This document shows, in pieces, positions 4,001-35,270 of a stretch of DNA of 64,000 nt; positions within the stretch are counted from its first letter, which is position 1; every line of letters begins with the position of its first letter. The stretch spans positions 10,935,950-10,999,949 of the forward strand of contig NC_134026.1 of assembly GCF_964204645.1 (NCBI RefSeq). The letters run 5' to 3'. Source of the stretch: Tubulanus polymorphus. Taxonomy: Eukaryota > Animalia > Nemertea. The translations under genes and the position numbers were made by a program. The notes under the pieces are model-generated. The model made no database searches. It saw only the letters and a program-made list of their open reading frames with translations, and was not told the origin of the DNA.

Positions 4001-4646
4001 TTAACCATATCGAGTGGTTACACTTAGAAATCAGATCATTTCTAACATAACAGATTAACGAGTCGTGATAATATAAAATTAATCCTCGATTATTTGGCGT
4101 ATAATACCCTATGGAGAAACCCTCTATTGTGAAGTCATCAAGTCTTGTTGAAATATCTCCAACTTCGCAAAGAGCAACAACTTTTGCTTTTGATTCAGTG
4201 ATACGGGATTTGAGATAATCGATACGTGTTCCATTGTCAGCAGTGATGCTTCTAATATTTGAAAATAAAATAGTAAGATCAGTTGTTGTCTCAGGACCAG
4301 GGTTGACTTCGACATCATTACATAGAAGTAAAATATAATAGCGTGTTTTATAGATATAAACTAAGTTTCCGCTACCCGGTAGTAGGATCACTGAAAAAAT
4401 AGCCAAAATAGTTAAGTAGATACTGCGTGAATTGTAAGTATGCTTGCTATTTGCTGCTAAGAATTTTACCCATGCATACACTATCAGACACCCAATCATA
4501 AAGCATGTGACTACCATAACAAATGATACTAACCGGACAAGTATAATAGGGATGCCGTCGGATAGAAATAGAGATAAGTATATGAAAAGCTTTAATAGTA
4601 AAGGCACGTACAGTCTTTTGTCAGGTGCATGTCTTACGCTAGCCAC
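1046..4646 (-). pseudogene. LINE ORF2 (APE endonuclease + reverse transcriptase), split by frameshifts and stops
   Basis: APE motifs in 3507-4646 (FSNIRS, ALCE, IIGDFNAK, IDLLFT, TDH); RT motifs in 1741-3183 (NYRPISLL, FLDISAAFDTL, VPQGSILGPLLF, YADD, HLGL); C-terminal Cys/His region in 1046-1555. Spread over four ORF fragments. Confidence 0.9.
4293..4316 (-). other. 2A-like ribosomal-skipping motif DVEVNPG|P upstream of the APE domain
   Basis: LLLCNDVEVNPGP matches the D(V/I)ExNPGP consensus; it follows a hydrophobic leader of about 110 aa and directly precedes the endonuclease. Confidence 0.8.
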
Positions 4647-5082
4647 AGCGGTGCAGATGGAGTTTTCAAGAAAAAAGAACCTATCCTAATTCGGTGATAT
4701 AAGTAACTAATTGGCATTACCCAATTCCCTTTCTCACTTCCGTAATTCCCTGCCTACATTATATTACAACGCTTTGAGTCTGAAAGAAAACATAACAAAA
4801 GGTAGAAATAAAAATGAAATATAAAGAAACCATATCACTGGAGGTTGTCGGTGGTGCCGTGGTGGAACATAAGTACAATAGTAGTAGTAGTAGCGGTGGT
4901 GCGCGCAAATATTTGAACAATTCGCTAGTTTTCGGTTTCTGGAGACGAGTCAGGTATGATTTCGGCAATCAATTTCAAAATATAACGGTCGCGCTCCTTC
5001 ACTTTGCGTGGTGATTTTGCGATGGCTACTAAGCCGAACAACTTAACCCTTTCCATTAACGATAACATTAAACGGCCGATAC

Positions 5083-10403: not shown

Positions 10404-10496
10404 AGTAATTGGAATATCAGGGGTTCAGATCAGAGGACGAGAGGACGAGACACCACTCATCACCACAAGTAATTTTTTTTCCTAATAAATGGGAGA
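10404..10496 (+). repeat. Left TIR of the Polinton (93 bp)
   Basis: AGTAATTGGAATATCAGGGG...TTTTTTTTCCTAATAAATGGGAGA is the exact reverse complement of 27665-27757; includes the ATG at 10489. Confidence 0.97.
10473..10491 (+). promoter_or_regulatory. Poxvirus-late-like promoter T(n)-N5-7-TAAATG (representative copy)
   Basis: TAAATG at ATGs 10489, 12288, 12826, 13719, 14847, 16125, 17609, 18951, 19400, 19816, 20062, 20422, 21282 and 27672; TAAATAATG at 21213; upstream T5-T8 run in 12 of 15 genes. The motif is seen directly; promoter function is inferred. Confidence 0.75.
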
Positions 10497-10815
10497 TAGA
10501 AAAGCATTCTTAGCAACAATGAATAACAGAATTAAACCAACAAAAAAACAATTTGAAATAAAAAAGTTAGTTGATGTTACAAAAGAAATTGAACATAAAA
10601 TATTGAAATTAGAAAAGATAAAAACTAAATATGGAGAGAAAGTATCAGCTAATTTAAGCTACTGTAATGTTAGTACATCACGAGAATTTAAAGTGTTTTT
10701 ACCCGATAAATGGGTTTCATTGAGTACAGAGGAATTGAAAGATTTAGTAGGATTTAAAATAATATATCATGGGAAAAATGAAGACGGTCATCATGATTTG
10801 GAAATTGTTGATTAA
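10489..10815 (+). CDS. Polinton hypothetical protein (108 aa), start codon inside the left TIR
   Basis: Intact ORF preceded by T8-CCTAA-TAAATG like the other element genes; no domain recognised. Confidence 0.7.
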   Translation: MGDRKAFLATMNNRIKPTKKQFEIKKLVDVTKEIEHKILKLEKIKTKYGEKVSANLSYCNVSTSREFKVFLPDKWVSLSTEELKDLVGFKIIYHGKNEDGHHDLEIVD

Positions 10816-11919
10816 ATAAAAAATAAAAATAATGAATATCTAAAAATGACCTTAGTCGTTTTATAAACAACTACAATCATACAGTCAAACATCTGTTACA
10901 TGTTATTACAAGAGAGTGCTTCATTTGAATATTGATCGATCAAACAGGTGTTGCACAACGTTGTTGTTATATAATAAGCACGCAGTACTTACAACACACA
11001 CAAGCCAGTTAGCCGGCATTGAACTACCGCGTTTTCATTAGTTGCTGAAAGCGAGGTTTATTTAAATTAGATAGGCCGTGACGAAGGATAGTCATCATTC
11101 TCTCGTGATTAAAAGGAATATTTCAATGTTTTTACGGTAAGTTTTAGCAAAATTGCCCTATCCTCGACCTATCCTCGAGTTTTCAGGGGATAAGCATCCC
11201 ATTATTGAAAGGCGCCACGGGACGCTTATCCCCCGTCATTTCTACTTACACCCCCGGCGACCCACGTCAACCGGGATCTCCTTCAATGATTGGTAGAAAT
11301 CACATTATATTAAAGGCGCCTAATGTAATTTCTACCAATCTCGAAATTCGAAACCGAAGGAGAAACCCGGAGAGTGGACGAAGGTGCATTTTCAAAATGC
11401 CTCTGCTGGCCAGAGCTATTCCAGTGTTTGAATGAATTACCTTATATACTTAGCTAAAACACCTAAGTAAATGTTGTTGGTGCTAAAAAAATATGTGAAA
11501 TTTGAAATTATAAATTATTCCGAATGAAAAGAATATAAGAATGAAAACTGATAAATGAATTATGGATTTTTAACTTAATTATGATATAATTTTTAATCAA
11601 ATTAGTAATCAATTACTATGTTAATTGATTAACAAATTCAAATTCAAATTCAAATATTCATTTCAGCATACCCAGTGTTGTCATCTTTCAATTTAAGAAA
11701 AAACTAATAATAAGAAACGACTGTAATACAATATTCAAGTAAAAACAAAATAAATTAATAAAAATAATGAATATCTAGAATCCGAAATGACTTATCTGGA
11801 CAATTTAATTGCTCCGCATAGATGGTGCCATAAACGGCACCCACACAGTGATAGACAAAAGTAGTGAGATATTCAATTAATTAAAAAAAATTATTTTTTT
11901 TTGCTTTTTTTCTAAAATA

Positions 11920-12288
11920 TTAATCCATTTTTTTTATTATCAATTTTGGAATTTCAGAAGTACTTTCATTTTTGATAGCAGTTGGTTCAGAATTACTAAT
12001 ATCATGAATTTTATTTGATTTCTTATACCAATTACACCCAATCAAAATGAATACAATTACAAATCCAACTGTAAAATATAAATATTTATCAAATATTCTA
12101 CTATCAGAAGGAGTAGAAATAACAATATTTTCACCATTTTTATTAACATTTTTATTACTTATTTTTTCTTTTACAGCTTTTTTATATTCTTGTGATTTAA
12201 TTCCTAATTGTCGAGACCATTCAATTTGTTTCTGAGTTCTCGGTTTTTTCTTCACAGTTAATTCCTTCACTTCTTTCACCTCGCTCAT
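11920..12288 (-). CDS. Polinton small membrane protein (122 aa)
   Basis: TAAATG start; basic N-terminus and one hydrophobic segment (YLYFTVGFVIVFILIGCNW). Confidence 0.7.
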   Translation of the reverse strand: MSEVKEVKELTVKKKPRTQKQIEWSRQLGIKSQEYKKAVKEKISNKNVNKNGENIVISTPSDSRIFDKYLYFTVGFVIVFILIGCNWYKKSNKIHDISNSEPTAIKNESTSEIPKLIIKKMD

Positions 12289-12826
12289 TTATTATAGAAA
12301 TATTTTTACTTTCAATATTTGAAAATGTTATAACCCCAGTTGATAATAATGTCATAAATCCACCTAATTGAAATGATAAATATCCAATCCATTTATTTAA
12401 TTCAGTCATAACTAAATAATCATTTTTTAAATCGGAATATAATCTATTTTCATCTTCAATTGGTAGTATATAATTACATAATTTACTATAACCTTTTACT
12501 ACATTTTCTGATATCGCGTCATTAATTTTAGCTGTTCTCGCGGCTTCATAAATCTTAAATAATCTAATAATTTCAACTGATTTCATTGTATCTAATTCAT
12601 TATAAGTTAAATTTTTATCGACAAATTTTTTACATTTTCCAGATGCTATTAATATTTCTAATTGATGTTTGCAATAAAGATAATATTCATAATTATTATT
12701 TGTTGTAACATTATTTAAAACACCATCATCTGGAATTAGTTTGTTTTCTGTTATTCCTAAATCATCTAAAGTTTTTTCAATTGGAACATCACCATCTTTA
12801 GATTTTATTTTCTTTTCACCTCCCAT
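12221..12826 (-). CDS. Polinton hypothetical protein (201 aa)
   Basis: T7-GTTATA-TAAATG start; intact ORF in the minus-strand gene array. Confidence 0.75.
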   Translation of the reverse strand: MGGEKKIKSKDGDVPIEKTLDDLGITENKLIPDDGVLNNVTTNNNYEYYLYCKHQLEILIASGKCKKFVDKNLTYNELDTMKSVEIIRLFKIYEAARTAKINDAISENVVKGYSKLCNYILPIEDENRLYSDLKNDYLVMTELNKWIGYLSFQLGGFMTLLSTGVITFSNIESKNISIINERGERSEGINCEEKTENSETN

Positions 12827-12860
12827 TTATATAACAAAAAAATTAATTGTGTGATGTTGC

Positions 12861-13105
12861 AACTAGAATTTAACTAGAATGTAACTAGAATTCAACTAGA
12901 TTAACAAGCTTGTTGAAATATTGTTGTTTTTGTTTATTTCTAGTTAAATCTAGTTGATTTTTGTTTCAACTACTAACAACTAGAATTCAACTAGAATGTA
13001 ACTAGAATTAAACTAGATTAACAAGCTAGTTAAAATATTGTTAAATCTATTTGATTTTTGTTACAACTACCAATAACTAGAATTCAACTAGATTAACAAA
13101 CTAAT
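12861..13105. repeat. Intergenic array of AACTAGA(A)T units (about 11-bp period) with higher-order duplication
   Basis: About ten direct AACTAGA copies in three blocks plus inverted TCTAGTT copies, between the ATPase stop and the next gene. Confidence 0.85.
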
Positions 13106-13110
13106 TGAAT

Positions 13111-13719
13111 TTAAATAAATTCATATTTAAATGGGTGTTGTAATCTAAATAGTAATTTTGATCTTTTAATATTTTTCAACTTATCCATATATTCATTATG
13201 TAAATCATGTGGAATAATATCATTTTCCTCAAGTGCATTTTTCATCGATTTTCTATCTTTATTGTAGAATAAAACTAGAAATCTAATGTTTTCGCTAAAG
13301 TCTTTAACAATTGAATTATATTTTTGATTTAAAACCCAAGTTGTTATCCCAAAATGTCTCCCAGAGAAAGCTAAATAGCATAACTCACTTTCTCTAACTT
13401 TTGAATCATGTAGATTAGCACAATCATCTATAATGAATAATGTATTTGATCCTTTATAAATATCAATTGCTATTTTAATACAATTATCTAAATTTTCTTT
13501 TACTGTTTTAGGATCTAATATAATAAATTTATTATTCCTAGTAATATTTCTATCATAAGTTTGATTAAATTCATATGTTGGACAAAATAATACTATATTA
13601 TGAAAATAGTTTTCATAAACAGTTTCTAATAAATTTAATATAAAATAAGTTTTTCCACAATTTGTTACACCAGAAATTAACATATTATGAGGCTCAAATA
13701 TGAATAATTCCTTATTCAT
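13111..13719 (-). CDS. A32/FtsK-like genome packaging ATPase
   Basis: Walker A ISGVTNCGKT, Walker B LFIIDD, GRH motif and downstream NQ; next to integrase and capsid genes. Confidence 0.9.
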   Translation of the reverse strand: MNKELFIFEPHNMLISGVTNCGKTYFILNLLETVYENYFHNIVLFCPTYEFNQTYDRNITRNNKFIILDPKTVKENLDNCIKIAIDIYKGSNTLFIIDDCANLHDSKVRESELCYLAFSGRHFGITTWVLNQKYNSIVKDFSENIRFLVLFYNKDRKSMKNALEENDIIPHDLHNEYMDKLKNIKRSKLLFRLQHPFKYEFI

Positions 13720-14847
13720 TTATATATTTTTAATTTTACTTGATAATATCCATTCATTGAATTTATCTGGCCATCCAACCCATTTTACTAAAGAATATTT
13801 TTTTCTTTTAATAGTTTTTGTTTTTAATACTTTTTCAATTTTATATTCTTGTTCTAGATTTTCAGTAGTTAAACTTAATTCTTCTTCGTAAAAGTAGCCA
13901 TCAACTTCTTCACCATCTAAATCTTCTAATTTATAGACATATGGTTTTGTTGTTATTACCTTTTTTATTTTATATATTTCTCTAGTAAAATTTCGATCGT
14001 ATCCTTTATCAAATATCTTTTTATACTTAGAAATTCTAACATTTTGACCAACTTTAAATTTAGGTTCACCAAAATCATCTACAAGAAATGCTCCATATAA
14101 ATTATTCCAAACAATTTCAGCATTTTCAGGTTTTCTAGCATCAATAGGTTTCATTCCAATAGAAGAATGATAAGAATTATTATATCCTTCTATCAATTTT
14201 GGTAAAACATCAATCCATTTAAAAGTATTATTTGCTGTAAAATATTTCTACATTCTTGTTCTTAATGTTCTATTAAATCGTTCAACAACTGCTGCTTTTT
14301 TATCTGATTTTGTTGAAAAATATTTAATATTATGATTATCTAAGAGTTCATGAACAAGTGAATTATCAAACTCTTTTCCATCATCAAATTGTATTTTTTC
14401 TGGTTTTAGTTTATCATCCGAAAGAGATTTTCTTAAAACATTTGATGTTTGTTCAGCATCTTTTCTATAAAGTGGGAAGCTCCATACATAACGACTAAAA
14501 ATATCAATTATATTCAATAACCACCAATAATCATCATTATCTTTCTTAACATTTTTCATATCAATTAAATCTCCTTGCCACTGTTGATCTACATAACTTA
14601 CCATAGTTTTACGAGTTTTAGATTTTCTAACAATTTTTTTATGTGTTGTGTATGTTGGTTGTTCTAACATAAATTCATTTATATCTTTATATTTAATTAA
14701 ATTGTGTGGGATTATCTTATCTAATTTATCTTGTTTTACTTTACGCCATATATTTTTAGTAGAAGAATAAGCAACTGAACTCTCAGGGTTGTAATATAAA
14801 TTTCTTAAATATTGTTCTTTAGTATTAGGAGATTTTTTACCACCCAT
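13720..14847 (-). pseudogene. Retroviral-type (rve) DDE integrase with C-terminal chromodomain; one in-frame stop
   Basis: WQGDLIDM / IQFDDGKEF / VVERFNRTL triad; TAG at 14248-14250 is followed in frame by KYFTANNTFKWIDVLPKLIEGYNNSYHSSIG; chromodomain YKIEKVLK...YSLVKWVGWPDKFNEWI. Confidence 0.92.
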
Positions 14848-14877
14848 TTATATACGCTTAATTTTAACTTTATATTT

Positions 14878-16125
14878 CTAATATTGAATACTATCTAATT
14901 GTGAATTTACTATATTTAATTGTGCATCAGATATAATATAAATGTGCATTTTAAAATTTTTGATTCCTTTATTCTTTGTCATGAATAATTGTATTCCATC
15001 TTTAGTGTTCTGTAGTTTTTTCCCAGAACCATGTAATGAATTATCCTCTGTTGTTCTAAAATCTAACCATAATGCATATTTACTACCGGTATAATAATCA
15101 ATTTGATTAATATTACAATTTTCAAATGATTTTACTTTTTCATTCATAAAATGTTTTCTAATTTCTGGCCATTGATCTATCATTCTCATTCCTTGACAAA
15201 ATATTTTATTTGCTATTCCTTCGATAGTTATTTCTACTTTTGTTATTTCAGGATTATAATAATTATCAACATTTATTGCGCCATTAGTATATGTTGCAAT
15301 GGTAAAAAATATTAATATACCTTTAATAGATCTTCTTGGGAAGTTAATATTCTCATTAATTATTTCATCATTTGCATTAATAGTTACGGTTTTAAATTTA
15401 TCAATATAATCATATAATAATGAAAATCCTTGATTGTATTTAGTTTGAATTATACTTGAAATATTTTCATCAGTTACTGTATCATATTCTAAACATATAT
15501 TCGATAATTTATAACTCATATCTTTATTAACGCTAGATAATACAATTTCATTTACAGGAGCAAATGTTATTTCGAATATAACGTCTTCTTGAATTGCGTA
15601 TTTATATAAAGGTGCATTATTATTTATCAATTCAAAATCTAATGGAATTTTATATTTGCTTCCATATATACTTTTTATCAATTTATCTACAGCATTAGTT
15701 AATATTGCGCTATTAGCTTCTGATCTTAATTTATTTTGGTTTTCTGATTGGATGCCTTGAAATATCATATTATTTCTATTTTCTTTAGTTAACCATAAAT
15801 CTTTATAATGCATAAATAAATTATAATCATCTAATGAGAAAACTGTTTCCGGACCAATCTTTATTGTTAACTTTTTAATCAAATATCTTCCAACATTATC
15901 AACAACATAATTATTATTATTACCGATTACTTTTATATCGGCCGATAAATAAATACTATTTGGAACATAAAAAGTATTTTTTGTTAATCTAGGAATTCTA
16001 ACGTATAAAGTTTCATCGGGATTAATATTTGAAGGGTTATGAGTAATTATACGATGTGATCTTTCTGCTTTAATAGCATAAGATATTCTAGAAATCTTAG
16101 AAGGATTGATATAACTCCCACTCAT
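14878..16125 (-). CDS. Major capsid protein (double jelly-roll), Polinton type
   Basis: 415-aa beta-rich ORF (THNPSNINPDETLYVRIPRL...YKLSNICLEYD...ALWLDFRT...LHGSG...YIISDAQLNI) resembling invertebrate Polinton capsid proteins; size and context fit. Confidence 0.8.
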   Translation of the reverse strand: MSGSYINPSKISRISYAIKAERSHRIITHNPSNINPDETLYVRIPRLTKNTFYVPNSIYLSADIKVIGNNNNYVVDNVGRYLIKKLTIKIGPETVFSLDDYNLFMHYKDLWLTKENRNNMIFQGIQSENQNKLRSEANSAILTNAVDKLIKSIYGSKYKIPLDFELINNNAPLYKYAIQEDVIFEITFAPVNEIVLSSVNKDMSYKLSNICLEYDTVTDENISSIIQTKYNQGFSLLYDYIDKFKTVTINANDEIINENINFPRRSIKGILIFFTIATYTNGAINVDNYYNPEITKVEITIEGIANKIFCQGMRMIDQWPEIRKHFMNEKVKSFENCNINQIDYYTGSKYALWLDFRTTEDNSLHGSGKKLQNTKDGIQLFMTKNKGIKNFKMHIYIISDAQLNIVNSQLDSIQY

Positions 16126-16145
16126 TTATTTAACAAAAAAATTAA

Positions 16146-17609
16146 TTATTTATTTTTTATTATGTTTACTAACCCAAAAATAATTGCACTTACAACTGTA
16201 ATTAAAAATAAAATAATATGTTCAGCAGCAAAGTTAATAATGTTTCCTGCAGATTTCAATATAAAACCAACAATTGATGCAATAACTCCTGGTAAAGCTG
16301 CAGCAGATTTCTTTGATAGTTCCCATAAATATTTTGCTAATTTCTTTAAACCATCTTTAACTTTATCTTGTATAGAATTATTATCATTCGGGGGTTTATC
16401 CGGTTTATTGGGAGTGGGAGTAGATTTCAAAGCATTTGATATAGCTAAACCAATTGTTGTAAATAACATAGTTACAGCTGTTAGAATTGAAAGAATTGTT
16501 ATTCCTTCTAACTTAAATAATAATTTTATTCTATCTTTCAATGATATTTCAGAATTTGGTTTTATTAGATATCTTTTAAAAACATCTTTTAACCTTTTAA
16601 AATTATTACCATATTCTTTTAATAATATATCTCTTTCTTCTTTCTGTAATTCTATATTATATTTTAAATCATCAATTTCTTTTTCTAAACGTAATTCTTT
16701 TTGCCTATATTCTATTTCTTCAATAACTTTATTATCTCTATCTAATTTCAATTGTTCTATTTCTTCATTTTTATCAGTTAATTCTTTTTCTAAAGTTCTA
16801 ATTTTAAAATCTATTATACTTTTATCATGTGCAATTTTATCAGATGCAAGCCTTATACTAATAATCTCTCTAATTGCTTTATCAGAAAATATATTTAAAT
16901 TTTCTAATTCTTGATCTGTTGCATCAAGTAATCCCTTCGGTAAAATTTTTTCAGTTTGAACTTCTCTTGAATTAGGTCTACTAGTTTTGGAATTAATAAC
17001 TTCTTTAGTAATTGTTTCTGTTTCTAAATTTTCATTAATTATCTTAAAAAATTTAGCATTTCTTTGTTTAAATTCTTTAAAATTAACAGTTCTTTCTTTT
17101 TTTGTAACATCAGTTATAACATCATTATTGATTTTCTTAATTCTAGATGGTTCTAATAAATTAGAAGTTGATTGTGTTATTATTTTATCGTTACTTTTAA
17201 TATTTAAAATAATAAAATAATAGTCGCCTTTCAATTTCCAATAATAAACGCCATTTAAATATTTCAAATCTTTTGCCAATTTATCCATACCTTTATCTGT
17301 TATATTGAAACCAGATTCTTTTAATATTGGTTTAAATTCATCAGTAATTTCATCATAATTTAATTCTTTATTTATTAAACCTGGGACTAAATTTTCAGCA
17401 CGTATTTTCGATCTAGCTCCTTTAATATATTCATTTGTTGATTGTGGTTTAGAACCAGGAACAACTTCGGGTGTATTTAAATTAGAATTATATGCTGTTT
17501 TATTATCATTACTATAACTTGTTTCACTAAAATCAAGTGGTTGTTCATCACTTATACCAGGTTCATCTAAAGGATCCACCAATGGAAAACCTTCTCCACC
17601 TTCTGCCAT
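16146..17609 (-). CDS. Coiled-coil protein with C-terminal hydrophobic/amphipathic helices (487 aa), putative virion membrane protein
   Basis: Long E/K-rich heptad region, then GITILSILTAVTMLFTTIGLAI, a Pro-rich linker, AAALPGVIASIVGFIL and HIILFLITVVSAIIFGLV. Confidence 0.8.
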   Translation of the reverse strand: MAEGGEGFPLVDPLDEPGISDEQPLDFSETSYSNDNKTAYNSNLNTPEVVPGSKPQSTNEYIKGARSKIRAENLVPGLINKELNYDEITDEFKPILKESGFNITDKGMDKLAKDLKYLNGVYYWKLKGDYYFIILNIKSNDKIITQSTSNLLEPSRIKKINNDVITDVTKKERTVNFKEFKQRNAKFFKIINENLETETITKEVINSKTSRPNSREVQTEKILPKGLLDATDQELENLNIFSDKAIREIISIRLASDKIAHDKSIIDFKIRTLEKELTDKNEEIEQLKLDRDNKVIEEIEYRQKELRLEKEIDDLKYNIELQKEERDILLKEYGNNFKRLKDVFKRYLIKPNSEISLKDRIKLLFKLEGITILSILTAVTMLFTTIGLAISNALKSTPTPNKPDKPPNDNNSIQDKVKDGLKKLAKYLWELSKKSAAALPGVIASIVGFILKSAGNIINFAAEHIILFLITVVSAIIFGLVNIIKNK

Positions 17610-17625
17610 TTACATAATAAAAAAA

Positions 17626-18951
17626 TTAAAATTTAAAATATAATATTCCTCCGATTACAATTCCTATATAAGTAAAAGCTAATTTAGTATTTTCATGGTA
17701 TTTATTATCATTATCAGTTTTAATTATATCATGTTGAATATTATCAGTTTTAATATTTTCTGTAGTATTGGAATCTTTTATTTTGGAATCATTATTTAAT
17801 TTGATATTATTAGTTTTAGTTTCAGTTGATTGAATGTGTTTTTTATTTTTTTCACCTTCCATTAATTTTGGAGCAGTGATAATCTTTTTATTTATATCAT
17901 TCAATCCAAATGAATTATTTATTGTTGCAGTTTTAATTAGATTATTATAACCAATTATATTTCCCATCTTTAATACTAAATCATTAGAAATAATAAATAG
18001 ATTAGGGCCTATACAATAATTTAATCTAATATGTGATTTATCTAAATAATTTTGATATCTTACAATGTTTTCTGGAATCGATCTATTTTTATCATTATGA
18101 ATTGAATCTTCAAATAATACTTTGAATTGTTTCTGCGCATCAAATGAAGTGTTATCATTTCCAATTATTGGGGATCTTGTTTCAACTTGCGCACCTAGAA
18201 TACATATCAAATAAGTTCTAATAGATTGATTTATTCTTTGTATTCCAGCTTTAGTAAAACCTTCACTATTTTCTAAAATGAAATTAACCCAACCATTATT
18301 GTTTTGTTGTTGTATATTATTATAATATTTTGGTAATTCATTCCAATTTAGTGTTCTTATATCTGAATTTGTCATTATTTTTCCAAATTCTTTAGTATAT
18401 AATATTCCTAATCCACCCATTGTTCCAATTTTTGCTCTAAAATCTTTATTTGAATTAATATTAAATTCATTACATATTTTATAAAACTTAGAAAAATTAA
18501 TATTATTATTCAATTCTTTAAAATATTTTGAACCTGGTAAAGGACATTCTAATTCATCTAATATTAATTTTATTTGAAAATATGTATGAAATCTAAAAAG
18601 TGATAACATCAATGGTAAACTTGGTTTGTTTAAATGATCATTCCAACTAATTCCACATCCTGTTGTTGCGCAATAAACAGCGAAATTTAATTGGTTCTGC
18701 CAATACTTCATATTAGATTTTGATAACCATTGTTTTGCCTCATTTAAATTTTTGAAATTAATTGTATACACATGAAATATATTTTCCATCTTTACATGAA
18801 AATTATTACTTTCAGTAACATAAATATATAAATCAATTAATGAATTTAAAACTTCATTTCTATATGTAATATCTTTATTAAAATCTATTGCTGGAATATT
18901 ATATTTAATTGATTTATTATATTGGAAAGCTTTTGGAAAACTATCGACCAT
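17626..18951 (-). CDS. Polinton hypothetical protein with C-terminal membrane anchor (441 aa)
   Basis: Intact ORF with TAAATG start, WQNQLNFAVYCATTGCGIS motif and terminal hydrophobic segment LAFTYIGIVIGGILYFKF. Confidence 0.8.
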   Translation of the reverse strand: MVDSFPKAFQYNKSIKYNIPAIDFNKDITYRNEVLNSLIDLYIYVTESNNFHVKMENIFHVYTINFKNLNEAKQWLSKSNMKYWQNQLNFAVYCATTGCGISWNDHLNKPSLPLMLSLFRFHTYFQIKLILDELECPLPGSKYFKELNNNINFSKFYKICNEFNINSNKDFRAKIGTMGGLGILYTKEFGKIMTNSDIRTLNWNELPKYYNNIQQQNNNGWVNFILENSEGFTKAGIQRINQSIRTYLICILGAQVETRSPIIGNDNTSFDAQKQFKVLFEDSIHNDKNRSIPENIVRYQNYLDKSHIRLNYCIGPNLFIISNDLVLKMGNIIGYNNLIKTATINNSFGLNDINKKIITAPKLMEGEKNKKHIQSTETKTNNIKLNNDSKIKDSNTTENIKTDNIQHDIIKTDNDNKYHENTKLAFTYIGIVIGGILYFKF

Positions 18952-18967
18952 TTATATAACTAAAAAA

Positions 18968-19400
18968 TTAATAATTTATTAATTCTTTTAATAATTTATC
19001 TTGTTCTTCAACTGTTATATGACCATTTAAACTTATGATATAATCTAGTGTGTTCTTTAATTTATTAATTTCTTTTATATTAGTTTTAATTTTTTCTTTA
19101 TTACTTTTTATATTTAATTTTGAACTTATACCGGTTAAAACACTTGAACTTAATCCTAACACACCAATTGATATAGCTAAAGGTGTTAATGGACTGAATA
19201 TTGCTAAAATGTTATTACAGAACTAATTGTAACCGAACCACTTATAATCAAATAATATATAATTTTACTTTTTAAATATTTTTTCTTTTTAACTTTTAAG
19301 TCACTTTCAAATTCTAATATTTGTTTTCTAAATATGTTTTTAATTTAGTTTTATTTATATCATGAGGAATAATATCAATACTATCAACTTTATCTTCCAT
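18968..19400 (-). pseudogene. Small membrane protein gene with two frameshifts
   Basis: Starts MEDKVDSIDIIPHDINK at T8-GCTAAA-TAAATG (ATG 19400); single-base losses in A/T runs near 19320 and 19207 would join it to the 18968-19162 ORF; two hydrophobic segments. Confidence 0.65.
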
Positions 19401-19424
19401 TTATTTAGCAAAAAAAATTACTAA

Positions 19425-19816
19425 TTAGTAAAACTTATAAGCAACAAATATAACAATAACTGTTCCACCTAAAATCCAAATTATTTCATATTTCTGTTGT
19501 TCTTTACTTGGGGTATAATAATCTGATAATGTAGGTTTGTATAGATGTAATTTTTCTTTATTTGTTACGGCGTTATATAATCTCTATGTGAGATCTTCTG
19601 ATCATATAATTCTTTATTGATGTAATCCATATAGTTTTGTCGTTTTTCTCTATATTCTTCTGCAGCTTTATTGTATTTCTCTAACGCTAAGTTATGTCTT
19701 CTTTGTTCTCCTAATGAACTATTTTTATCAATATGCTTAAATAAATAACCACCACCAGTAAATGCTAAAGCGTTAACAATTGCCGATCCTATAATAGTTA
19801 TAATTGCAGAAGCCAT
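19425..19816 (-). pseudogene. Small membrane protein gene, frameshifted near 19580
   Basis: MASAIITIIGSAIVNALAFTGGGYLF...RRHNLALEKY continues in another frame as KPTLSDYYTPSKEQQKYEIIWILGGTVIVIFVAYKFY*. Confidence 0.7.
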
Positions 19817-19840
19817 TTATTTAGCAAAAAAATTATGCAT

Positions 19841-20062
19841 TTATATAGGAGGAATATATTTTTGTTTTTCCAAATAATCAATTGTTAAATTAGATAAAGT
19901 AACTGCTAACGTTAATTTTAAAATATCATTTATATCAAATCTATCAACATTAACACTTCCCATTTTGAATACTTTTTTTAATACCATTGAATAACCAACA
20001 GTTCCAACTGATAGTAAGGCGCCATTATATAATCCAGTTATTATCCACTTATTATCACTCAT
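19841..20062 (-). CDS. Small hydrophobic Polinton protein (73 aa)
   Basis: T7-GATAAA-TAAATG start, coupled to the stop of the upstream gene; ends DYLEKQKYIP. Confidence 0.7.
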   Translation of the reverse strand: MSDNKWIITGLYNGALLSVGTVGYSMVLKKVFKMGSVNVDRFDINDILKLTLAVTLSNLTIDYLEKQKYIPPI

Positions 20063-20422
20063 TTATTTATCAAAAAAATTACTATCATCAAAATATTTAG
20101 TTATCTTATTTATGATTAATTCAACATTTATTTCATTACTACTTTGATGATTATCATATATTTCAATTATTATTTTTTTAATATCATCGATGATAAAATC
20201 TTCATCTAATTCATAAAATCTTAAAGATTCTCTAATTAAATTAGTAATCTTTTCTATATTTAAAGTTTCTTTATCTATTGTTGTTTCATACTCAAATGTT
20301 GTTTCATTAGAAAATGTAATATTTTTGATGTGTGTAATTACATCATTAATGTTAAATTTCATTTCTTTCTCACGTTTAAAATCAAACCCAAAACATATGC
20401 TCGGCCCAACAGTTATATTCAT
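20063..20422 (-). CDS. Polinton hypothetical protein (119 aa, acidic)
   Basis: T6-CACTATA-TAAATG start; ATGA overlap with the minor capsid stop. Confidence 0.65.
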   Translation of the reverse strand: MNITVGPSICFGFDFKREKEMKFNINDVITHIKNITFSNETTFEYETTIDKETLNIEKITNLIRESLRFYELDEDFIIDDIKKIIIEIYDNHQSSNEINVELIINKITKYFDDSNFFDK

Positions 20423-21213
20423 TTATATAGTGAAAAAATTACTCTTACATTACTCATGCATTTACATCTTATAACTAATTCATATATCACAGGAAAGTTA
20501 TTCAAATCAATTAAATATCCATTATGATTTCTTATTTCTAATTTAAAATTATTAAATTTAGGAATGCATGGTTTGAAATCACATTCAGTTAAATTATAAT
20601 TTATTTGAGTTCCAAATTGTTTAACATTTTTCAGCGGTAAAATATTTAATATACTAGAATTACAAATTGTATATTTAGTTGCTTCGAATGTTTTTGTAGG
20701 CTCGATTAAATTGCAATAAATATAAAAGTGTGTAAAAGGTATTATATTTGAATTACCATCTACGTTTCCTGTAACAGTATCTGGTGCAATTCCTAACAGT
20801 TTAGCTAATGGTTTTTTTACCATAAATGCATGTTGACTTTCATCATATACCTTTATTTTAATTTTATTTGTGCTATCACTTTTTATAAATCTAATTAAAG
20901 ATTTATCTTCTCTTCTAATTTTCAACGGTGCTCTTCGATTAATTTCTTGAGCTAATGTTTCTAAATTATATAATCCTGGTTTTAGAATTATATGAAACCA
21001 TTTATTTACATTTCCATTATGAATTAAAAAAGTATTATCTTCAATAGTTTTATCCGTTATATTATAAAAAGAATTACATAAACTTATATTAACTAATTTT
21101 AAATCTACACAATTTTTATATTCTCTATCTAATTGTACTAGTAAATTATGAGATTTATAATTTGTAAGTTTTCTAGAATCAACAAATATTCTGTATTCCT
21201 TTAATTCTACCAT
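20419..21213 (-). CDS. Minor capsid protein (penton, single jelly-roll)
   Basis: IFVDS...LKLVNISLCNSFYNI...PGLYNLETL...FYIYCNLI...LEIRNHNGYLIDLNNFPVIYELVIR pattern typical of Polinton/virophage pentons. Confidence 0.75.
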   Translation of the reverse strand: MVELKEYRIFVDSRKLTNYKSHNLLVQLDREYKNCVDLKLVNISLCNSFYNITDKTIEDNTFLIHNGNVNKWFHIILKPGLYNLETLAQEINRRAPLKIRREDKSLIRFIKSDSTNKIKIKVYDESQHAFMVKKPLAKLLGIAPDTVTGNVDGNSNIIPFTHFYIYCNLIEPTKTFEATKYTICNSSILNILPLKNVKQFGTQINYNLTECDFKPCIPKFNNFKLEIRNHNGYLIDLNNFPVIYELVIRCKCMSNVRVIFSLYK

Positions 21214-21281
21214 TATTTATAACATAAAAAAATTACCGCTCATCACTAAAAATTAATTTTAATAAAATTTTTCCTTAATAA

Positions 21282-22598
21282 ATGGATGAGAAGATAGCAT
21301 GCGAAATTTGTGGTGAACTTCTAAGAAAAAGCAATATGGCTCGACATATGAAAAAACATGATGAAAATTATAAACCCCCTAAAATAAACTGTCCAAAATG
21401 TAATAAATTATTCTCAAGAAATTATGTTAAAAAACATTCAGAGAAGTGTAGAATTAATGGCGCAACGGCTAATGTTGATAGTAATGAAAGTAATAGTAAT
21501 TCTGCTGAAGTTGAACCTGAAGTTATTTGGAAAAGACCTTTCTTATTCTATGATAAGGATAATATAAAAGATCATTTCTGTGAGCCTTGTCGAATAAAAT
21601 ATAGCCCTGAAAATATAGAAGATTGGGAGAATCATCAATTTCGTAAAGTACATATAGATAAAATTTCTAATAAATTTGAAACTGAATTTAATGAAAGAAA
21701 AAATAATTTATTAGAAAAAATAAAATATGAGAAAACGTTACCAGATAATGAAGAAACAGTTGAAAAGTTAGAAAAACAATATAATGAATTAACAAGAAAA
21801 ACATATTATTGTAAATATTGTAAATTGATTATTACAACAAGTAATTCAAATCTACATAATAGAACAATAAAACATAAAGAAAACGTAAGAAAATACCAAG
21901 AGCTTAATGAAGATCTACTACCAATAAATTATAAACAAAAATGCCCACAATGTATTTATGCGACCTTAAGGCAAGAAGGTACTGTGTTATTTTGTAATGA
22001 ATGTGGATGGCAAAAGAATTTATTGGGTGAAGAAAAAACTAGAGATTTTCTCATAGATCCAAAATTAAATTATCTAGATGAAATATTTAAAATATTTTCT
22101 ATGGAAGATCATACACCAGAATATATGCAATGGCTTGAAAAAATGAAAATAATAGAAAATAAAAATGGTGAAATAACTAAAAAAGATATTATAAAAACAA
22201 TTATTCCACCAACATTTAACACAAAACAAAAGAAAATGTATTTATATTTATTATTTAACGATTATTATGAAAAACCTAAATTAACAGAAGAAGATATGGA
22301 AAATATAAAGAAAATATTCAAACAAATATTAATGTATCATTTGGAAAATAGAATAACAGATTCAATAAATTATGAATTCTTTTTAAATAAGATTGTAAAT
22401 TATTTAAACCTAGATATTATAATTCCATTTGATGAATTAACAAACAAAAAGAAACAAAGAGAGCGAGATGAAATGTGGAACAAGATAGAACTTTATTTAA
22501 ATGAGAAAAATGGAATGGAAGAAGAACCTGAACAATTAAATGAAAATGAAGAAGCCAATAGTGATTTCGAGTATGATGATATTGATTTTATGTTTTAA
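21282..22598 (+). CDS. Zinc-finger protein with C-terminal VLTF3 (poxvirus A2)-like late transcription factor domain
   Basis: N-terminal C2H2-type fingers (CEIC...H, CPKC, CEPC...H, CKYC...HNRTIKH); Zn ribbon CPQC...EGTVLFCNECG; then KLNYLDEIF, PKLTEEDMENIKKIFKQI, SINYEFFLNKI and RERDEMWNKI, matching the VLTF3 family motif order as recalled. Confidence 0.7.
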   Translation: MDEKIACEICGELLRKSNMARHMKKHDENYKPPKINCPKCNKLFSRNYVKKHSEKCRINGATANVDSNESNSNSAEVEPEVIWKRPFLFYDKDNIKDHFCEPCRIKYSPENIEDWENHQFRKVHIDKISNKFETEFNERKNNLLEKIKYEKTLPDNEETVEKLEKQYNELTRKTYYCKYCKLIITTSNSNLHNRTIKHKENVRKYQELNEDLLPINYKQKCPQCIYATLRQEGTVLFCNECGWQKNLLGEEKTRDFLIDPKLNYLDEIFKIFSMEDHTPEYMQWLEKMKIIENKNGEITKKDIIKTIIPPTFNTKQKKMYLYLLFNDYYEKPKLTEEDMENIKKIFKQILMYHLENRITDSINYEFFLNKIVNYLNLDIIIPFDELTNKKKQRERDEMWNKIELYLNEKNGMEEEPEQLNENEEANSDFEYDDIDFMF

Positions 22599-25500
22599 TG
22601 ACCATAAGGTAATGTTTTTATACCATCATCTAAAATATGCCTTTTATCATCAAATGGATTTAAACTAGTTTTTTCAACTTCATTAATGTACATCTCGTGA
22701 TTTTCTGATCTTAAACAATTCATTTTATTTTTCATAACAATTGATTTATATAAACACTTTATATAATCTTGAAATTCTATATGTTTATCAACCACATGTT
22801 TTGTTATTCCTTTTAACTTTTTAGCTTCATGATCTTTTGTTCTATAACTATACATTTTACTTCTTATCCCAACGAATTCAATCATTTCATCACCCCCTAA
22901 TTCATCTTTAAACTTACCAGGAATCTTTTTATTATCATTGCTAAATAGTTCATGATCTTTGGGATAATTGCTAAATTCAAAATAATGTTTTAATGTTTTT
23001 AAGTCTTTTGTTATGTCATTTGTCTTGATTTTTAGTATGTACGCATCCGTATTGACTGCTATTAATGGAAATCCACAGTTAAATGTACCATCTTCAGTTG
23101 ATAAATCATAAACATAATCTGTTGGGTTATATATTTCAAATAAATCTTTAACTTCTTCTGTTAACTCATTTTCTACATGGCTTAAATTAAAACAATTTGG
23201 TTTAGATTTAATCAATCCAATATTCATATTAAAACCTAATGAATTGCATAATATATTCAATCCTGATATAGCAACTTTTCCTTTTTGAGCTAAAGATATT
23301 GTTTTGCGGTTTTTGAAACTTTTTGAACCATCTGCGGCATAGAATCCAATGAAGAACCATTTTCTTAAATTATTTTTTGCATTTAATACATAATCTGGCG
23401 CTATTTTTTCTTTAGTTGAAGTATTACTTTTCACTATTGCATGAATATAGAATTCATTATATTATATTTTATAGCAAAATCTTTAGGATTATTTACAAGT
23501 ATTCTATAAACTGCTGTTGATTTCATAACATCCATGATTCTAAATGTTTTATGTGAATAAACTTCTTCGCAAAATTTCTTTATTCTTTCTAATGATTTTA
23601 AGTCTTGATTGCATAAATACCAACAATATTTATTACCCCAAACATATTTATACACACCTGCTGAACCATCTCCCATGAAAAATCCTTTGATAAAATATTC
23701 TTTTTCTTCTAATGTTTCGGGTTCTATATTATAAATATTATCAATAATTTCATCAAATGACATATGATTCATTCTTTGGAAAAATCTTTTATGCAATAAT
23801 TCATCTCCAATTTTTATATCAGTTGGTTTTATTTCATCACCAATTCGTTTAATTAAACTATGATCTTCTGTAACATCTACAAATCCTAATTTAGTTCTAA
23901 CTATAGATTTTCTTATTTGTTTTATGCCTAATAATATTCTTTAATTTTTTCCATCCATTTCTTGTCCAAACATCCATTAAACCATTTATTTGTATTAATT
24001 CTTTTTCTCCATATGAAATATAACATTCATTTTGTTTTGGAATTATTTCTGAAATTCTTCTTACCAATATTTTATTATTACATTTTAATAATATTGGGGT
24101 GTCAGCTGTTACAGAATCAAAATATAATATTTCAATATGCTTTTCCCCAAAAAGTGGTTGTAAAACATTTTAATAAAAATCATACATTAATAATTTTGAT
24201 ACTTCTAAAACAGTCGAACCAATAAATATAGGTTTATTAAATTTCATTGATGTTCTTTTTAATTTAACTGCTGTTAAATAATCTTCAAATCTTTTATTTC
24301 CTAAATGTCTAGGACTTGATTGTAAATGTCTTAATCTTTCAGAATTATTTACTAATTCAATATCATTTCTATTTCTAATATTTTCACATGTTTTACCATA
24401 AAAACTATTATTCATTAATTTGAAGAAATCTTTTTCAAAATCTGTTTTTGATATTGTTCTCTGTTGAGTATTGAAATCTATATATTTTTCTAACCACTTC
24501 GATTGATTAAATTCAATATATCTATGTACTTTCTTTAATTTCATTCCTTGTTTTAGATAAAATTTTAACATTCTATAATGAACAATATAATTGTATTTAT
24601 TATTTTGAGTAAGTATTAATTTTTCTGTAAAAACATGATCTTTCGGTTTTATTTTCTTCTGGTATTCACTTAAATAACTATCATCTACAGTTAAATGTTC
24701 TGGGCAATAAGGTAAGTTTCTTGTTTTAAACTTTATATTTTCAGGATATTCTAAATCAACTACAAAGAAATAACCAATTGGTGCTTCATCTTTTAAACTC
24801 GCAATTGCGCTTTCCCAATCAGTTTTATCACCATTTTCAACTTCTGTTAATATAAAATTTTTATATGGTTGAGGTTGCATCATTGCCCAACCATATAAAT
24901 TATTGGCGTCAATATATAATAATTTATATTCATCATTTGCTTTAAAATACCTATCTCCCATAACACCACTAATTCCACCTCTAATTGATTTTTCAAATAA
25001 TAAAACCATATCTGGTTCTTTTAATAAATCTAATTCTACATTTGTATATTTTAAACCACATTGCCAGGTTAAACCAGGACTTGAATAATAATAACAAGGA
25101 TCAACATTAAAATGATTCAAATTAACTTCTCTAAATTTTTCAAATATGTCAGCTAATATCATAACATCTGATTTTAAATATAAATCAACTAATTCGCCAT
25201 GATTTTTCATCTTAAAATGGTTCCAAATATTTAATGTTCTATTAAAAACTTCGTCTTTCACATACTCCTCTTTTAATTGATCATAAAATTGATCTTTTAA
25301 TAATTCTGTTACATTAAAATCATTGTGTGTTTTATAAAATGAATAAGGAATTGCGCCTTTATATCTCAATAATTTAAAATCTTGTTCATTTGGATAATAA
25401 TATTGAGTTATAACAAAATCATTATCAACTAAACTTTTTGATAAATTATCTAATGAACTTGCTAGAAATCTATAAGAATCTAAAAATCTAATGCAACCAA

Positions 25501-27672
25501 ATTGAAATGAAATATAATTTTCAGATGTTTTAGCTAATAGTTTAAAATCATATTTTCTTACATTTGCTTCATTCATTATATTCTTCTATTGCATTATATT
25601 CTTCTATTTCTTGATTAATTGCGCCCAATTTTCCCGATAATTGTTTTATAAATAGATGGGTATCATAGCCTGATAAATTATGAAATAATATTGGTACGAA
25701 ATTAACTTTCTTAGCTTGTAAATTGCAATCTTCATGAGCAGCTCCACGATATTTTGAATTCAAATGATCATGATCTCTAACTTTTTTATCAAATGAATAA
25801 AAACGTTTTTCACAATAACAACAATGAGTTGCATAATTAAAATCAATTTTATCTTCTTTTGTCATAACTATTCTTTTATTTTTGTTTAATAATTTTGCAA
25901 AATCACTTTCTAATTCAATCATTTTATAACAAAAATCATTAACTACATTTTCACCTCTAAAAGAAATATATTGACTTTCATATAATTCAGGATAATTTGA
26001 TTTTATATAAATTCCATAAGCAGCAGCTCTTTGATGAACTTTTTTAATTGTATTTATAATTGGCGGGTCTTGTATTGTGTCTTCATTTAATTCATTTCCT
26101 TTATCCATTGATTTTAATAATTGCTTTTTGTTATATATTTCTTTTCTATCTTGATCAGTTAATTCTTTATTCAACGATTCAAAATCCCCATAAATTACAA
26201 ATGGAACAATATTCTTAAATTTATGATTAGTAAATTTCAATTTATAATCTTTTTCTGTTGGCATTATTAATTAACAAAAATCTTTATTATCACATAATTC
26301 TTTATGTTTTAGTAACGCATTCTCAGTCATAAATTTAGATAAACATTTTCTACATAGATAAATTTTATTATGATGATCACTTTCTGTTCTAAAGAATAAA
26401 TCAATTTGTTTTAACCACATATAATGTTCATTTTCATCTTTTTTTGTAATATAACAAATCTATAGCATTTTCATCATCATAATATTCTGTTAAATATAAA
26501 GCTTCCAATGTATAATCTTTAATATTTTCACCTTTTGTCTTTGGTAATTGCATTAATTCGAATACATTTATTTTTAAATTATTAACTTTTTCTATTTTAG
26601 GAATCATTTTTATAGTTACTGGATATTGATCAATTTTATATAATGTTTCATATTTCCGATAATCTGTTATTCTACAAACATTTTCCTGTGTTGGATGTAA
26701 GCAACTAATAATTGACCATAGAAAACATTTATTATCTTCATTTTGAATATTTATTACTGCTTTTGTTGTAAATGGTAATTTAATATAAGATGATGCTTTA
26801 ATATCCTTTTCTGTTGTAAAGTTTGAATCATTTTTAAACATTTTATTACTTTTTGATGTTTTATTTCTTTTTGTATTATAAACGTTTAAATCTAAATATA
26901 TAATTTCATTCAATGTTAAGCCAGAACCCTCAAAATATCTTTCTTCAATATGACGTTTAAATTCATTTAATATTTTTTCTAACTTCTCTTTTATTTGCGT
27001 TTTTGAAATTATTTCTTCAGAGAGTGTTTGAATATTATAATTCATTTTTTCTTCTGACTTTATAAAACTTACTTTCCCAGAGATACTAATTTTTGGATAT
27101 TCAACATCTGTTATCAAATCTAGTATTTTTTCTATTATTTCATTAAATTTACTATAATCTTCCATTGTTTTTCCTTTAAAGAATCTAAATATAATAGCTG
27201 CAGGACCAATTTTACTATGTAATGTTTCTAAAATTTCAATTGTATCTTTTATTTCTAGTGAATCAATATAATTTCTAACATTTTCCATGTAAGGTTTATT
27301 TGAAATGGATTTAGTTTTTGAAGTTGGTTTTTTTACTTTTTGAGGTTTATCATCAAAATAATCTTTTCCTAAAACATTATTACTCAAATTTTGGTGGTGT
27401 TTTTGTGATTCGAGATGTCTATTATAATTCCTTTTTACTATAAATTCATTACAAACTTCACATTTTATTTCATCCACATTCATATTTTCTAATCGTTCTT
27501 TTCTTTCATTGGAATTTTCTGGGGTTTCAAAATCTATTACATTTTTTATATGATTTGCAGTTTTTTCATGTCGTGTTTTATTAGATGTATCGACGTATTT
27601 TTTACAATATTGGCAATAATATTGATTTTTATTAACATTATTGTTTTCTGGCTGGTGTTCATTCTCTCCCAT
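22595..27672 (-). pseudogene. pPolB: Protein-primed family B DNA polymerase (N-terminal Zn fingers, OTU-like region, exonuclease with HNH/EndoVII insert, polymerase), intein-containing, disrupted
   Basis: ExoI VIYGDFES, ExoII FHNLSGYD, ExoIII YLKSDV, motif A YIDANNLYGWAM, motif B KLMNNSFYGK, motif C YFD|TDA split by the intein, then GKFKDE, SKMY, KLKGI, FDDKR. Lesions: frameshifts near 26440, 25575, 23903 and 23445; in-frame stops at about 26271-26273 and 24170-24172. Confidence 0.95.
23051..24115 (-). mobile_element. Intein with LAGLIDADG homing endonuclease (about 355 codons) in pPolB motif C
   Basis: N-junction ILYFD|SVTADTPILLK (block A); block B VDVTEDHSL; two LAGLIDADG helices FIKGFFMGDG and FFIGFYAADG; blocks F/G YVYDLSTEDGTFNCGFPLIAVN|TDAY. 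Removing it restores YFDTDA. Confidence 0.93.
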
Positions 27673-27757
27673 TTATTAGGAAAAAAAATTACTTGTGGTG
27701 ATGAGTGGTGTCTCGTCCTCTCGTCCTCTGATCTGAACCCCTGATATTCCAATTACT
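27665..27757 (-). repeat. Right TIR of the Polinton (93 bp)
   Basis: Exact inverted copy of 10404-10496; contains the pPolB ATG (27672); followed by TSD TATCAT. Confidence 0.97.
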
Positions 27758-28419
27758 TATCATCACAGCACTGATATAGTGTTTTATCAATCTTGTTACG
27801 TGGCTACATTCAATTTATTTAATAAATCTTTTTGTCCTTTACTCGAGTTTTCCAGTGGTTACAACTTGGTTCACTTATTTGCATCATCTAACCACCAATG
27901 ATAAGTCTTTAAGCTGACTCCTGAAATGGAATAATCTTGACTAAACCTTGATTGGTTACTAAGTTCTATTCACACATCGATGACTGAATTACTAGTTTGC
28001 CAATCTATGTAACTATTCCTAATAAGACTGCTTCTTCGAACCTCGGGACTCTAAAGTCCTCTTGTTTTTTTACAATTTTCCTTTTGATATGCTAACCGGC
28101 ATGATCAGTTGATACAATTGCTGCCCGGGTACTGTTTAGTAAAAGCACCGTACCTAATTAGTATTCAACTCACTGACTTTAAGTTATGAACTGAACCTGA
28201 GTAACCACAGTCGTCTGAGTACTATAAACTGGAAGTATTTCCCACACATGGCTTCTAAAATCATCATTATGATATTTTTAGAAATGTCTTGAGTCAGGTT
28301 TTTTCTTGACTCCTATAAAGTGACACTCATTCTGCTTTCGAAAAACCCTTGTCTTGAAGACAATTTCCAAAACTACCTACCGCCGTGTCCAATCATCATT
28401 TTCTATCGTATGCCGTTTC

Positions 28420-35188: not shown

Positions 35189-35270
35189 GGCACACGGTCC
35201 TTCATCCCAGCCATTTTATATCAGGGTAATCCACACAAACACCCAGCCCCTCGATCCATTGATATCTTGT

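Follow-up and report, generated by a model that had tools for sequence, protein, structure and literature searches.

A promoter-type TAAATG motif at nearly every gene start of a Polinton, and its candidate readers

A 64,000-nucleotide stretch of a Tubulanus polymorphus (Nemertea) chromosome (NC_134026.1, positions 10,935,950 to 10,999,949; the window) contains a Polinton/Maverick-type element in which nearly every gene begins with the same short motif, a run of T residues followed at a nearly fixed distance by a TAAATG that includes the start codon. The locus raises the questions of what this motif does and, if it is a promoter, which RNA polymerase would read it. RNA polymerase families were not matched among 19 open reading frames (ORFs) of the element or then among 17 proteins; several ORFs were left unnamed, and the DNA left uncovered amounted to just 1,104 and 284 bp.

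Motif occurrence was scored at 15 gene starts, the set of an earlier sequence-only note (the original prediction), and the remaining ORFs (inner pieces of broken genes, antisense shadows, and short ORFs) were pooled into 665 control ATGs. Among the ORFs so pooled, only one, of 50 amino acids, started with TAAATG. TAAATG had been reported at 14 of the 15 starts and a run of at least five T residues at 12; both counts were reproduced, with the run 4 to 8 nt upstream, and the five instances that had been written out were exact in sequence and position. The independent counts required correction. Because the motif lies inside the terminal inverted repeat (TIR), the two terminal genes (10489, plus strand; 27672, minus strand) share a single motif, and as both of their start codons sit in the repeat as well, the 15 starts amount to 14 independent ones. 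TAAATG was found at 13/14 independent starts versus 36/665 other ATGs of the element (Fisher test, P = 4e-15), and the T-run together with TAAAT(AAT)G at 11/14 versus 2/665. The motif was also longer than first described, with a TAA ahead of the T-run in 10/14 starts; this long form (TAA-T5+) occurred at 0/665 other ATGs. The pattern TAATTTTTTN{4,8}TAAATG had 10 matches in the window versus 0.02 expected (100 shuffles), and T-run-TAAATG had none in 46.6 kb of flank. Enrichment over internal ATGs and over shuffled sequence excluded chance, the motif was present at the terminal and the divergent genes as claimed, and its reality is confirmed. The 264-aa gene starts with TAAATAATG, also as claimed; its designation as a penton gene was not confirmed (DUF5901 only, E = 0.003).

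The distribution of the motif was examined among relatives, for which 924 capsid homologs were found; the best 80 of 174 related stretches from a metagenome scan, mostly partial loci, were scored. Gene starts were taken as the first ATG of genes with a closed 5′ end and a BLASTP match to a gene of the element. The close set, comprising 16 loci with capsid identities of at least 50%, had TAAATG at 42/52 starts versus 1/249 in 61 other loci (0/46 under 40% GC and 0/19 at ≤31% GC). Among the 10 close-set starts without TAAATG, four belonged to inner pieces of broken genes, and three had TAAAT 1 to 3 bases earlier; an independent gene caller gave TAAATG at 47/55 starts. In a quick capsid tree of 67 rows, from which 14 loci with capsid pieces of <300 aa were excluded (including L027 and L071, which identity alone had assigned to the close set), the window fell in a 15-row group (SH-aLRT, 99) with 14 motif-positive rows, and a 42-row group had none. 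The motif label changed 4 times on this tree versus a mean of 15.2 for shuffled labels, a contrast inflated by near-copies. Gene order varied among L001, L003, L005 to L013, and the window, and the motif was kept; it was also found in loci of 35 to 44% GC (L006 to L008) and before accessory genes (deoxynucleoside kinase and HNH-like nucleases). The motif is a lineage-specific trait. Three loci with capsids 32 to 34% identical (L075, L078, and L080) had TAAATG at 12/13 genes, mostly without a T-run, and because they fall outside the 15-row group, the TAAATG trait may have had more than one origin, or several losses. Three matches in prokaryote assemblies were without the motif.

These counts bear on an explanation by translation or gene packing, in which TAAATG would either join a stop codon to a start codon or be the context favored for starts where DNA is AT-rich, and leader sequence would account for the T-tract. 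The TAA was the stop codon of the upstream gene at 2/12 minus-strand starts, an ATGA overlap occurred once, and A at −3 and G at +4 (42/58) suit a eukaryotic start context. The other 10/12 starts were not such junctions, however, the terminal and divergent genes have the motif, and scanning needs no fixed distance from tract to TAAAT. Because AT-rich Polintons without the motif exist and stop-start junctions are so few, AT content and gene packing do not explain it, and this explanation is considered improbable.

Counted from the T of TAAAT, the 13 TAAATG starts of the window had A at −15 (13/13), T at −11 (13/13), and T at −10 (12/13), and the starts without a T-run (12288, 13719, and 14847) were still in register. 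Clade starts (n = 55) had T at −9 in 89% and at −10 in 78%, versus 32% of 92 non-start TAAATG sites; under single-caller scoring, T at −10 was found in 37/47. In vaccinia late promoters, according to a review, the base ten positions upstream of TAAAT is a conserved T (PMC11980589); their core, which contains T, is placed 5 to 7 bp from TAAAT(G/A), and the latter overlaps the site where transcription begins (PMC5294985). Salmon gill poxvirus genes are reported as annotated with TAAATG (PMC4542343). When compared with such published descriptions (the scored sets held no poxvirus DNA itself), the element matched in TAAAT(G) overlapping the ATG (13/14 starts, plus one TAAAT-AATG), in the T at −10, and in a spacer of 5 to 7 nt. 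The proposal of a promoter with vaccinia-late architecture gained from this register, from lineage-wide retention through gene-order shuffling, and from the VLTF3 gene described below; the word "poxvirus" proved too narrow on the motif alone. Judged from sequence, the motif very probably acts as a promoter.

The T-run had been proposed to serve as a terminator too, and neither coding-strand counts nor gene-end windows supported this. Were the run chiefly there to terminate the upstream gene as poly(T)/TTTTTNT, only TAAATG would belong to the start; transcripts of African swine fever virus (ASFV) are described as ending at poly(T) (PMC7163114). TTTTTNT was depleted in coding strands of the clade (11 observed versus 36 expected) and the window (6 versus 13, or 8 versus 15 with other trimming), and the end of the 122-aa gene is followed by a T8 run that precedes no start. 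Against this, runs of at least seven A residues were depleted as well (23 versus 55), and motif-less Polintons avoided T-runs too, more weakly (observed/expected, 0.52 to 0.67). Among clade gene ends for which no next start was listed, T5 followed 9/32 (three of these nine did have an unlisted TAAATG start) versus 219/734 template-strand and 49/734 coding-strand control windows, and 2/5 free gene ends in the window; T-runs also precede genes with nothing upstream. The T-tract belongs to starts, not to free gene ends, and a mainly terminating role is very hard to credit. ASFV, described as having initiators of the TATA or TANA type and terminators of poly(T) (PMC7163114), is a poorer fit to the motif. 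A role of the T-tract as a splice acceptor was rejected, as no AG follows the tract, and avoidance of AATAAA and splice donors was discarded as a test of nucleus versus cytoplasm, being nondiscriminating.

The ORF at 21282-22598 was predicted to encode N-terminal zinc fingers and, toward the C terminus (approximately residues 210 to 420), a VLTF3 domain (A2-like late transcription factor of poxviruses). A whole-ORF Pfam scan returned zinc fingers only and missed VLTF3; residues 210 to 420 matched PF04947 (Pox_VLTF3; 26.6 bits; cutoff, 25; E = 5.8e-6), and 28/30 Atlas matches were Pox_VLTF3 (score, 0.96). The structural model (pLDDT, 79.5; four sequences) has a zinc ribbon and then a helical domain. 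Its top Foldseek rows were cowpox VLTF3 (E = 6.7e-6), an entomopoxvirus late factor (1.1e-5), an unnamed protein (1.4e-5), and Melanoplus entomopoxvirus VLTF-3 (5.8e-5), followed by an exonuclease (1.2e-4) and other giant-virus VLTF3 proteins (from 1.5e-4); poxvirus rows ranked 1, 2, and 4, with other rows within a factor of about 3 to 20 in E. Sequence and model together indicate that the 438-aa protein carries a VLTF3 domain, possibly of the poxvirus type. VLTF3 homologs numbered none in the 90% collection and three in the 50% library (P0121 to P0123), and these had no PF04947 match as whole proteins at an E value of 0.01; a gene cut off at the end of L003 was identical to P0121 at 63/66 residues at its 5′ end. 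Neither the capsid nor a VLTF3 alignment retrieved relatives in IMG/VR. VLTF3 in some coral Polintons has already been published and read as gene exchange with giant viruses, with a 2016 review cited there (PMC11131425).

The explanation preferred here, with modest confidence, is that the motif is a compact late-type promoter, for which a co-infecting Nucleocytoviricota virus, possibly pox-like, would supply the RNA polymerase, with the element's own VLTF3 likely helping. That a helper polymerase reads these promoters is suggested by the sequence as somewhat probable; that the helper is specifically pox-like is rather doubtful. A wider proposal, offered tentatively, is that this animal Polinton lineage consists of integrated satellites of an unseen poxvirus-like invertebrate virus, whose late machinery would be captured by their own VLTF3 and whose type of late promoter would precede each gene. 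The predicted VLTF3 would draw the helper polymerase to the genes of the element, transcription would start on the AAA of TAAAT, and slippage would make a 5′ poly(A) leader, as described for vaccinia and the yeast pGKL elements (PMC6211774), the transcripts having no other leader. Each gene would be its own transcription unit, so that genes could shuffle together with their signal. As a virophage-like satellite, the family would have lived off the helper, its own integrase placing it in the host chromosome. Because the window copy is broken in several genes, this explanation applies to the family of the element; the copy itself is likely dead.

A number of results weigh against a helper, and a pox-like helper in particular. 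TAAATG was scored with one gene caller in 120 loci around relatives of two giant-virus-like records, which were reached via a motif match, so that the counts may be raised. It was found at 37/124 unique starts in L204 to L216 (putatively iridovirus-like by their genes), 75/338 in L217 to L244, 86/337 in L245 to L275, and 37/330 in L276 to L323, a set that may include other viruses; several of the giant-virus-like contigs are labelled GVMAG. TAAATG thus accounted for 22 to 30% of starts in three non-pox giant-virus-like sets, versus roughly 0 to 6% of other ATGs in most of these loci. T at −10 occurred in 13/37, 38/75, 61/86, and 15/37 of these starts, respectively, so that L245 to L275 favor it as well, and TT at −10/−9 in 10, 17, 26, and 7, versus 33/47 in the Polinton clade. 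The motif was thus not specific to poxviruses among large DNA viruses, and with such starts frequent in giant viruses of other kinds, the helper could be something else than a poxvirus. The TAAAT initiator is widespread among large DNA viruses, and the T-tract register is nearest to the published vaccinia pattern without being exclusive to it. In L204 to L275, TAAATG often occurred as AATAAATG, and there it is possibly a shared late initiator. The motif scan of viral contigs (at least 120 stretches) found no helper virus, with one match each and 12/120 at an ORF start; two large records had 16 and 10 looser motif matches and no VLTF3.

Further points on the same side concern VLTF3 and the setting of the element. 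The lead of poxviruses over other VLTF3 proteins in fold matching was small (6.7e-6 to 5.8e-5 versus 1.5e-4), and the VLTF3 model had no match in PDB at an E value of 0.001, the weak rows including RAP94 and TFIIB chains. The VLTF3-domain profile matched 0/80 of the mostly partial Polinton loci, and because the domain was found in none of them, VLTF3 may be an accessory gene. AATAAA content was the same in the motif lineage and in other Polintons, with depletion in neither, and tight head-to-head gene spacing was dropped as an argument, since motif-less Polintons have tight pairs too. The whole case is read from DNA and models, and a cytoplasmic polymerase would still have to reach an integrated copy. 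VLTF3 is also described as kept by viruses that lack an RNA polymerase and are probably nuclear, the mriyaviruses and ariadnaviruses (PMC11253617, 10.64898/2026.08.29.747986).

Such viruses favor a nuclear alternative, in which the motif would be a promoter for host RNA polymerase II; the VLTF3 of the element, as a TFIIB-like zinc-ribbon/helical factor, would redirect that enzyme, and no helper would be involved. Integration of the element in a chromosome agrees with this, as do the nonsignificant TFIIB and RAP94 fold rows. Yet the motif was found in 14 positive clade rows and VLTF3 in the window and L003 only (the loci being partial), and the VLTF3 gene itself begins with the motif and so is without an evident early promoter. 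The putative initiator takes in the ATG and leaves no room for a leader, in keeping with the slippage-made leaders described for viral polymerases (PMC5294985, PMC6211774), and AATAAA was not depleted in coding strand (67 in 12.8 kb) or in other Polintons. Transcription by RNA polymerase II is accordingly regarded as fairly unlikely, though the strongest of the alternatives. A second alternative would make the motif a relic, left either by an ancestor that depended on a helper or by exchange with giant viruses, after which the lineage spread by host machinery. The decay of the window copy and the published interpretation of Polinton VLTF3 as giant-virus gene exchange (PMC11131425) are in line with a relic; retention of the motif in capsid relatives down to 50% identity, across GC shifts, gene shuffling, and accessory kinases and HNH nucleases, is not, and such retention implies selection during that divergence. 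A relic is thought a shade less probable than the translational explanation above.

The preferred explanation, a promoter read by a helper polymerase, has partial counterparts in known systems. Vaccinia late transcription needs A1, A2/VLTF3, G8, and the viral RNA polymerase. The element resembles vaccinia late promoters in TAAAT over the ATG, T at −10, a spacer of 5 to 7 nt, and an A2/VLTF3-like domain; it differs in using one promoter type for nearly all genes, including polymerase and integrase, in the TAA ahead of the T-tract, and in having no recognized RNA polymerase, A1, or G8, and the likeness is one of sequence alone. The yeast cytoplasmic virus-like elements pGKL1/2 are not known to have a capsid or an integrase gene. 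They are described as linear, similar in size, and equipped with a TAAAN initiator and slippage-made 5′ poly(A) leaders, but RNA polymerase and capping enzyme are both self-encoded there, and the element upstream is more like that of poxvirus early promoters (PMC6211774). Sputnik, mavirus, and Gezel-14T are reported to share promoters with their helpers (mavirus with CroV, Sputnik with mimivirus late, and Gezel-14T with PgV early promoters [10.1101/2022.07.28.501842]). Like the element, such virophages, as well as such Polinton-like viruses (PLVs), are small, encode a capsid and no RNA polymerase, and carry one helper-type signal before many genes; unlike it, they infect protists and use Imitervirales motifs, whereas the element uses the TAAAT type, has a capsid 30 to 75% identical to those of Polinton-type loci, and sits in an apparent animal chromosome. 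The entomopoxvirus-associated AHEV_PLV1/2 and CBEV_PLV1 (PMC11296320), put forward as hyperparasites of animal poxviruses and compared with the element by description only, are about 12 kb long with capsid and replication genes, but the published description of the capsids is that they diverge strongly and fall in no group (10.64898/2026.06.19.733378). Coral VLTF3 polintoviruses (PMC11131425), mriyaviruses, and ariadnaviruses resemble the element as DNA viruses, small or integrated, that have VLTF3 but no RNA polymerase.

The term "promoter" is missing from the main texts of PMC11131425, PMC11253617, and 10.64898/2026.08.29.747986, and the main text of the entomopoxvirus-PLV paper (PMC11296320) contains neither promoter nor TAAAT nor motif. 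The word "promoter" was likewise absent from the accessible text of the adintovirus, egovirus, and 2026 framework papers (PMC8502044, 10.1101/2024.03.23.586382, 10.64898/2026.06.19.733378). Among the matches listed, polinton, promoter, and TAAATG co-occurred only in a protist-virophage paper, as far as its accessible text goes (PMC6510173). No published account of this promoter in Polintons was found in main texts; supplements and subscription papers were outside this scope, and a prior mention is possible. New here is a TAAATG promoter-type motif in a Polinton lineage, a candidate variant of helper-promoter sharing; VLTF3 in Polintons was already known. Virions of animal Polintons have not been seen, according to the accessible text of 10.64898/2026.06.19.733378, and a signal of one motif per gene, limited to one lineage and accompanied by a predicted late transcription factor, makes their transcription and any helper dependence directly testable. 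The motif is also a tag for finding such Polintons and their helper. If the satellite proposal is true, the promoter would predict which endogenous Polintons need a helper, and of which kind; a pox-like helper would mean poxvirus relatives in hosts where none are described. If host polymerase II reads the motif, the element would be a minimal system for the role of VLTF3 in polymerase-less viruses.

The features of the element are collected in the table below.

Table. Features of the Polinton/Maverick-type element, in window coordinates
Feature	Position	Strand	Start motif	Remarks
Polinton/Maverick-type element	10404..27757			17,354 bp; decayed, with breaks in integrase, pPolB, and two small genes
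Left TIR	10404..10496	+	10470-10491	Contains start codon of 108-aa gene
108-aa ORF	10489..10815	+	In left TIR	No Pfam match; nearest named Atlas cluster PF17427, score 0.88
122-aa gene	11920-12288	-	TAAATG, 12286..12307	No T≥5 run; A/T tract in register
201-aa gene	12221-12826	-	Full, 12824..12845	
A32-like packaging ATPase	13111..13719	-	TAAATG, no T-run	Pfam PF04665, E 1.9e-12
Retrovirus-like integrase + chromodomain	13720..14847	-	TAAATG, no T-run	Broken; Pfam rve (PF00665) E 1.3e-10, Chromo E 7.7e-5
Double jelly-roll major capsid protein	14878..16125	-	Full, 16123..16144	415 aa
487-aa gene	16146-17609	-	Full, 17607..17628	
441-aa gene	17626-18951	-	Full, 18949..18970	
Small broken gene	Start 19400	-	Full, 19398..19420	Unbroken 144-aa relative in L003
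Small broken membrane-protein gene	Start 19816	-	Full, 19814..19835	
73-aa gene		-	Full, 20060..20081	Motif TAA is also stop of 119-aa gene
119-aa gene		-	Full, 20420..20441	
264-aa gene	20419-21213	-	Variant, 21211..21235	T7, TAAAT-AATG
VLTF3 gene	21282..22598	+	T5, 21264..21284	438 aa; divergent from 21213
DNA polymerase B, protein-primed (pPolB)	22595..27672	-	In right TIR	Several pieces; Pfam PF03175 E 3.4e-17 on 24170-25576
Right TIR	27665..27757	-	27670-27691	Motif identical to that of left TIR; contains pPolB start codon

Assignment to the Maverick/Polinton group (Polintoviricetes) follows from the TIRs (93 bp, perfect) and a 6-bp target-site duplication (TATCAT; 10398-10403 and 27758-27763), from a protein-primed PolB with an rve integrase, and from a double jelly-roll capsid with an A32-like ATPase. 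The GC content of the element was 22 to 26% versus mostly 35 to 42% in the flank. The capsid had no match in a sequence search against PDB and was identified by its fold (AlphaFold2 model; pLDDT, 88.5), for which the best Foldseek PDB match was the PBCV-1 capsid (E = 6e-18). Neither a penton (single jelly-roll) nor an adenain-like protease had a Pfam or NCBIfam match among the scanned ORFs of the element; the protease is described as typical of Polinton group 1 only (10.64898/2026.06.19.733378). The TAA of the TAAATG at the ATPase start doubles as the stop codon of the integrase gene. The 108-aa ORF may encode a phi29-type single-strand DNA-binding protein, a weak lead from sequence. On the minus strand, the pPolB gene holds a broken insert (approximately 23070-24110) with a homing-endonuclease-like ORF (23434-23772), which is putatively intein-like by its motifs; Pfam gave no match for it.

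Several minor observations concern noncoding parts, relatives, and flanks. The 1.1 kb at 10816-11919 is without a clear gene, has 32% GC, and contains a 24-nt direct repeat (10822, 11757) and a 20-nt inverted repeat (11288/11321); it may be an insertion into the element. Between the end of the ATPase gene region and the next promoter, positions 12815-13125 hold three imperfect copies of a 97- to 117-nt unit made of ACTAGAAT-type words, and no structured RNA was matched in Rfam within the element. Among relatives, the deoxynucleoside kinase gene (Pfam dNK, E of about 1e-31) was found at L003:10340-10981, head-to-head with a VLTF3-type gene, and at L007:2895-3377. HNH-like nuclease genes with TAAATG starts occupied variable positions (L001:5568-6083, L007:1717-2448, L008:3289-4023, and L027:2278-2898), two of them with weak Pfam matches. 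The flank retains the remains of a LINE-type retroelement (1046-4685, minus strand), among them endonuclease and reverse transcriptase, and has a weak match, under the cutoff, to an animal potassium-channel subunit (E = 0.014). It also contains large near-perfect inverted repeats at 34764-38458 (arms of 1,604 nt) and 39816-41582 (arms of 569 nt), which are possibly foldback elements or assembly artifacts.

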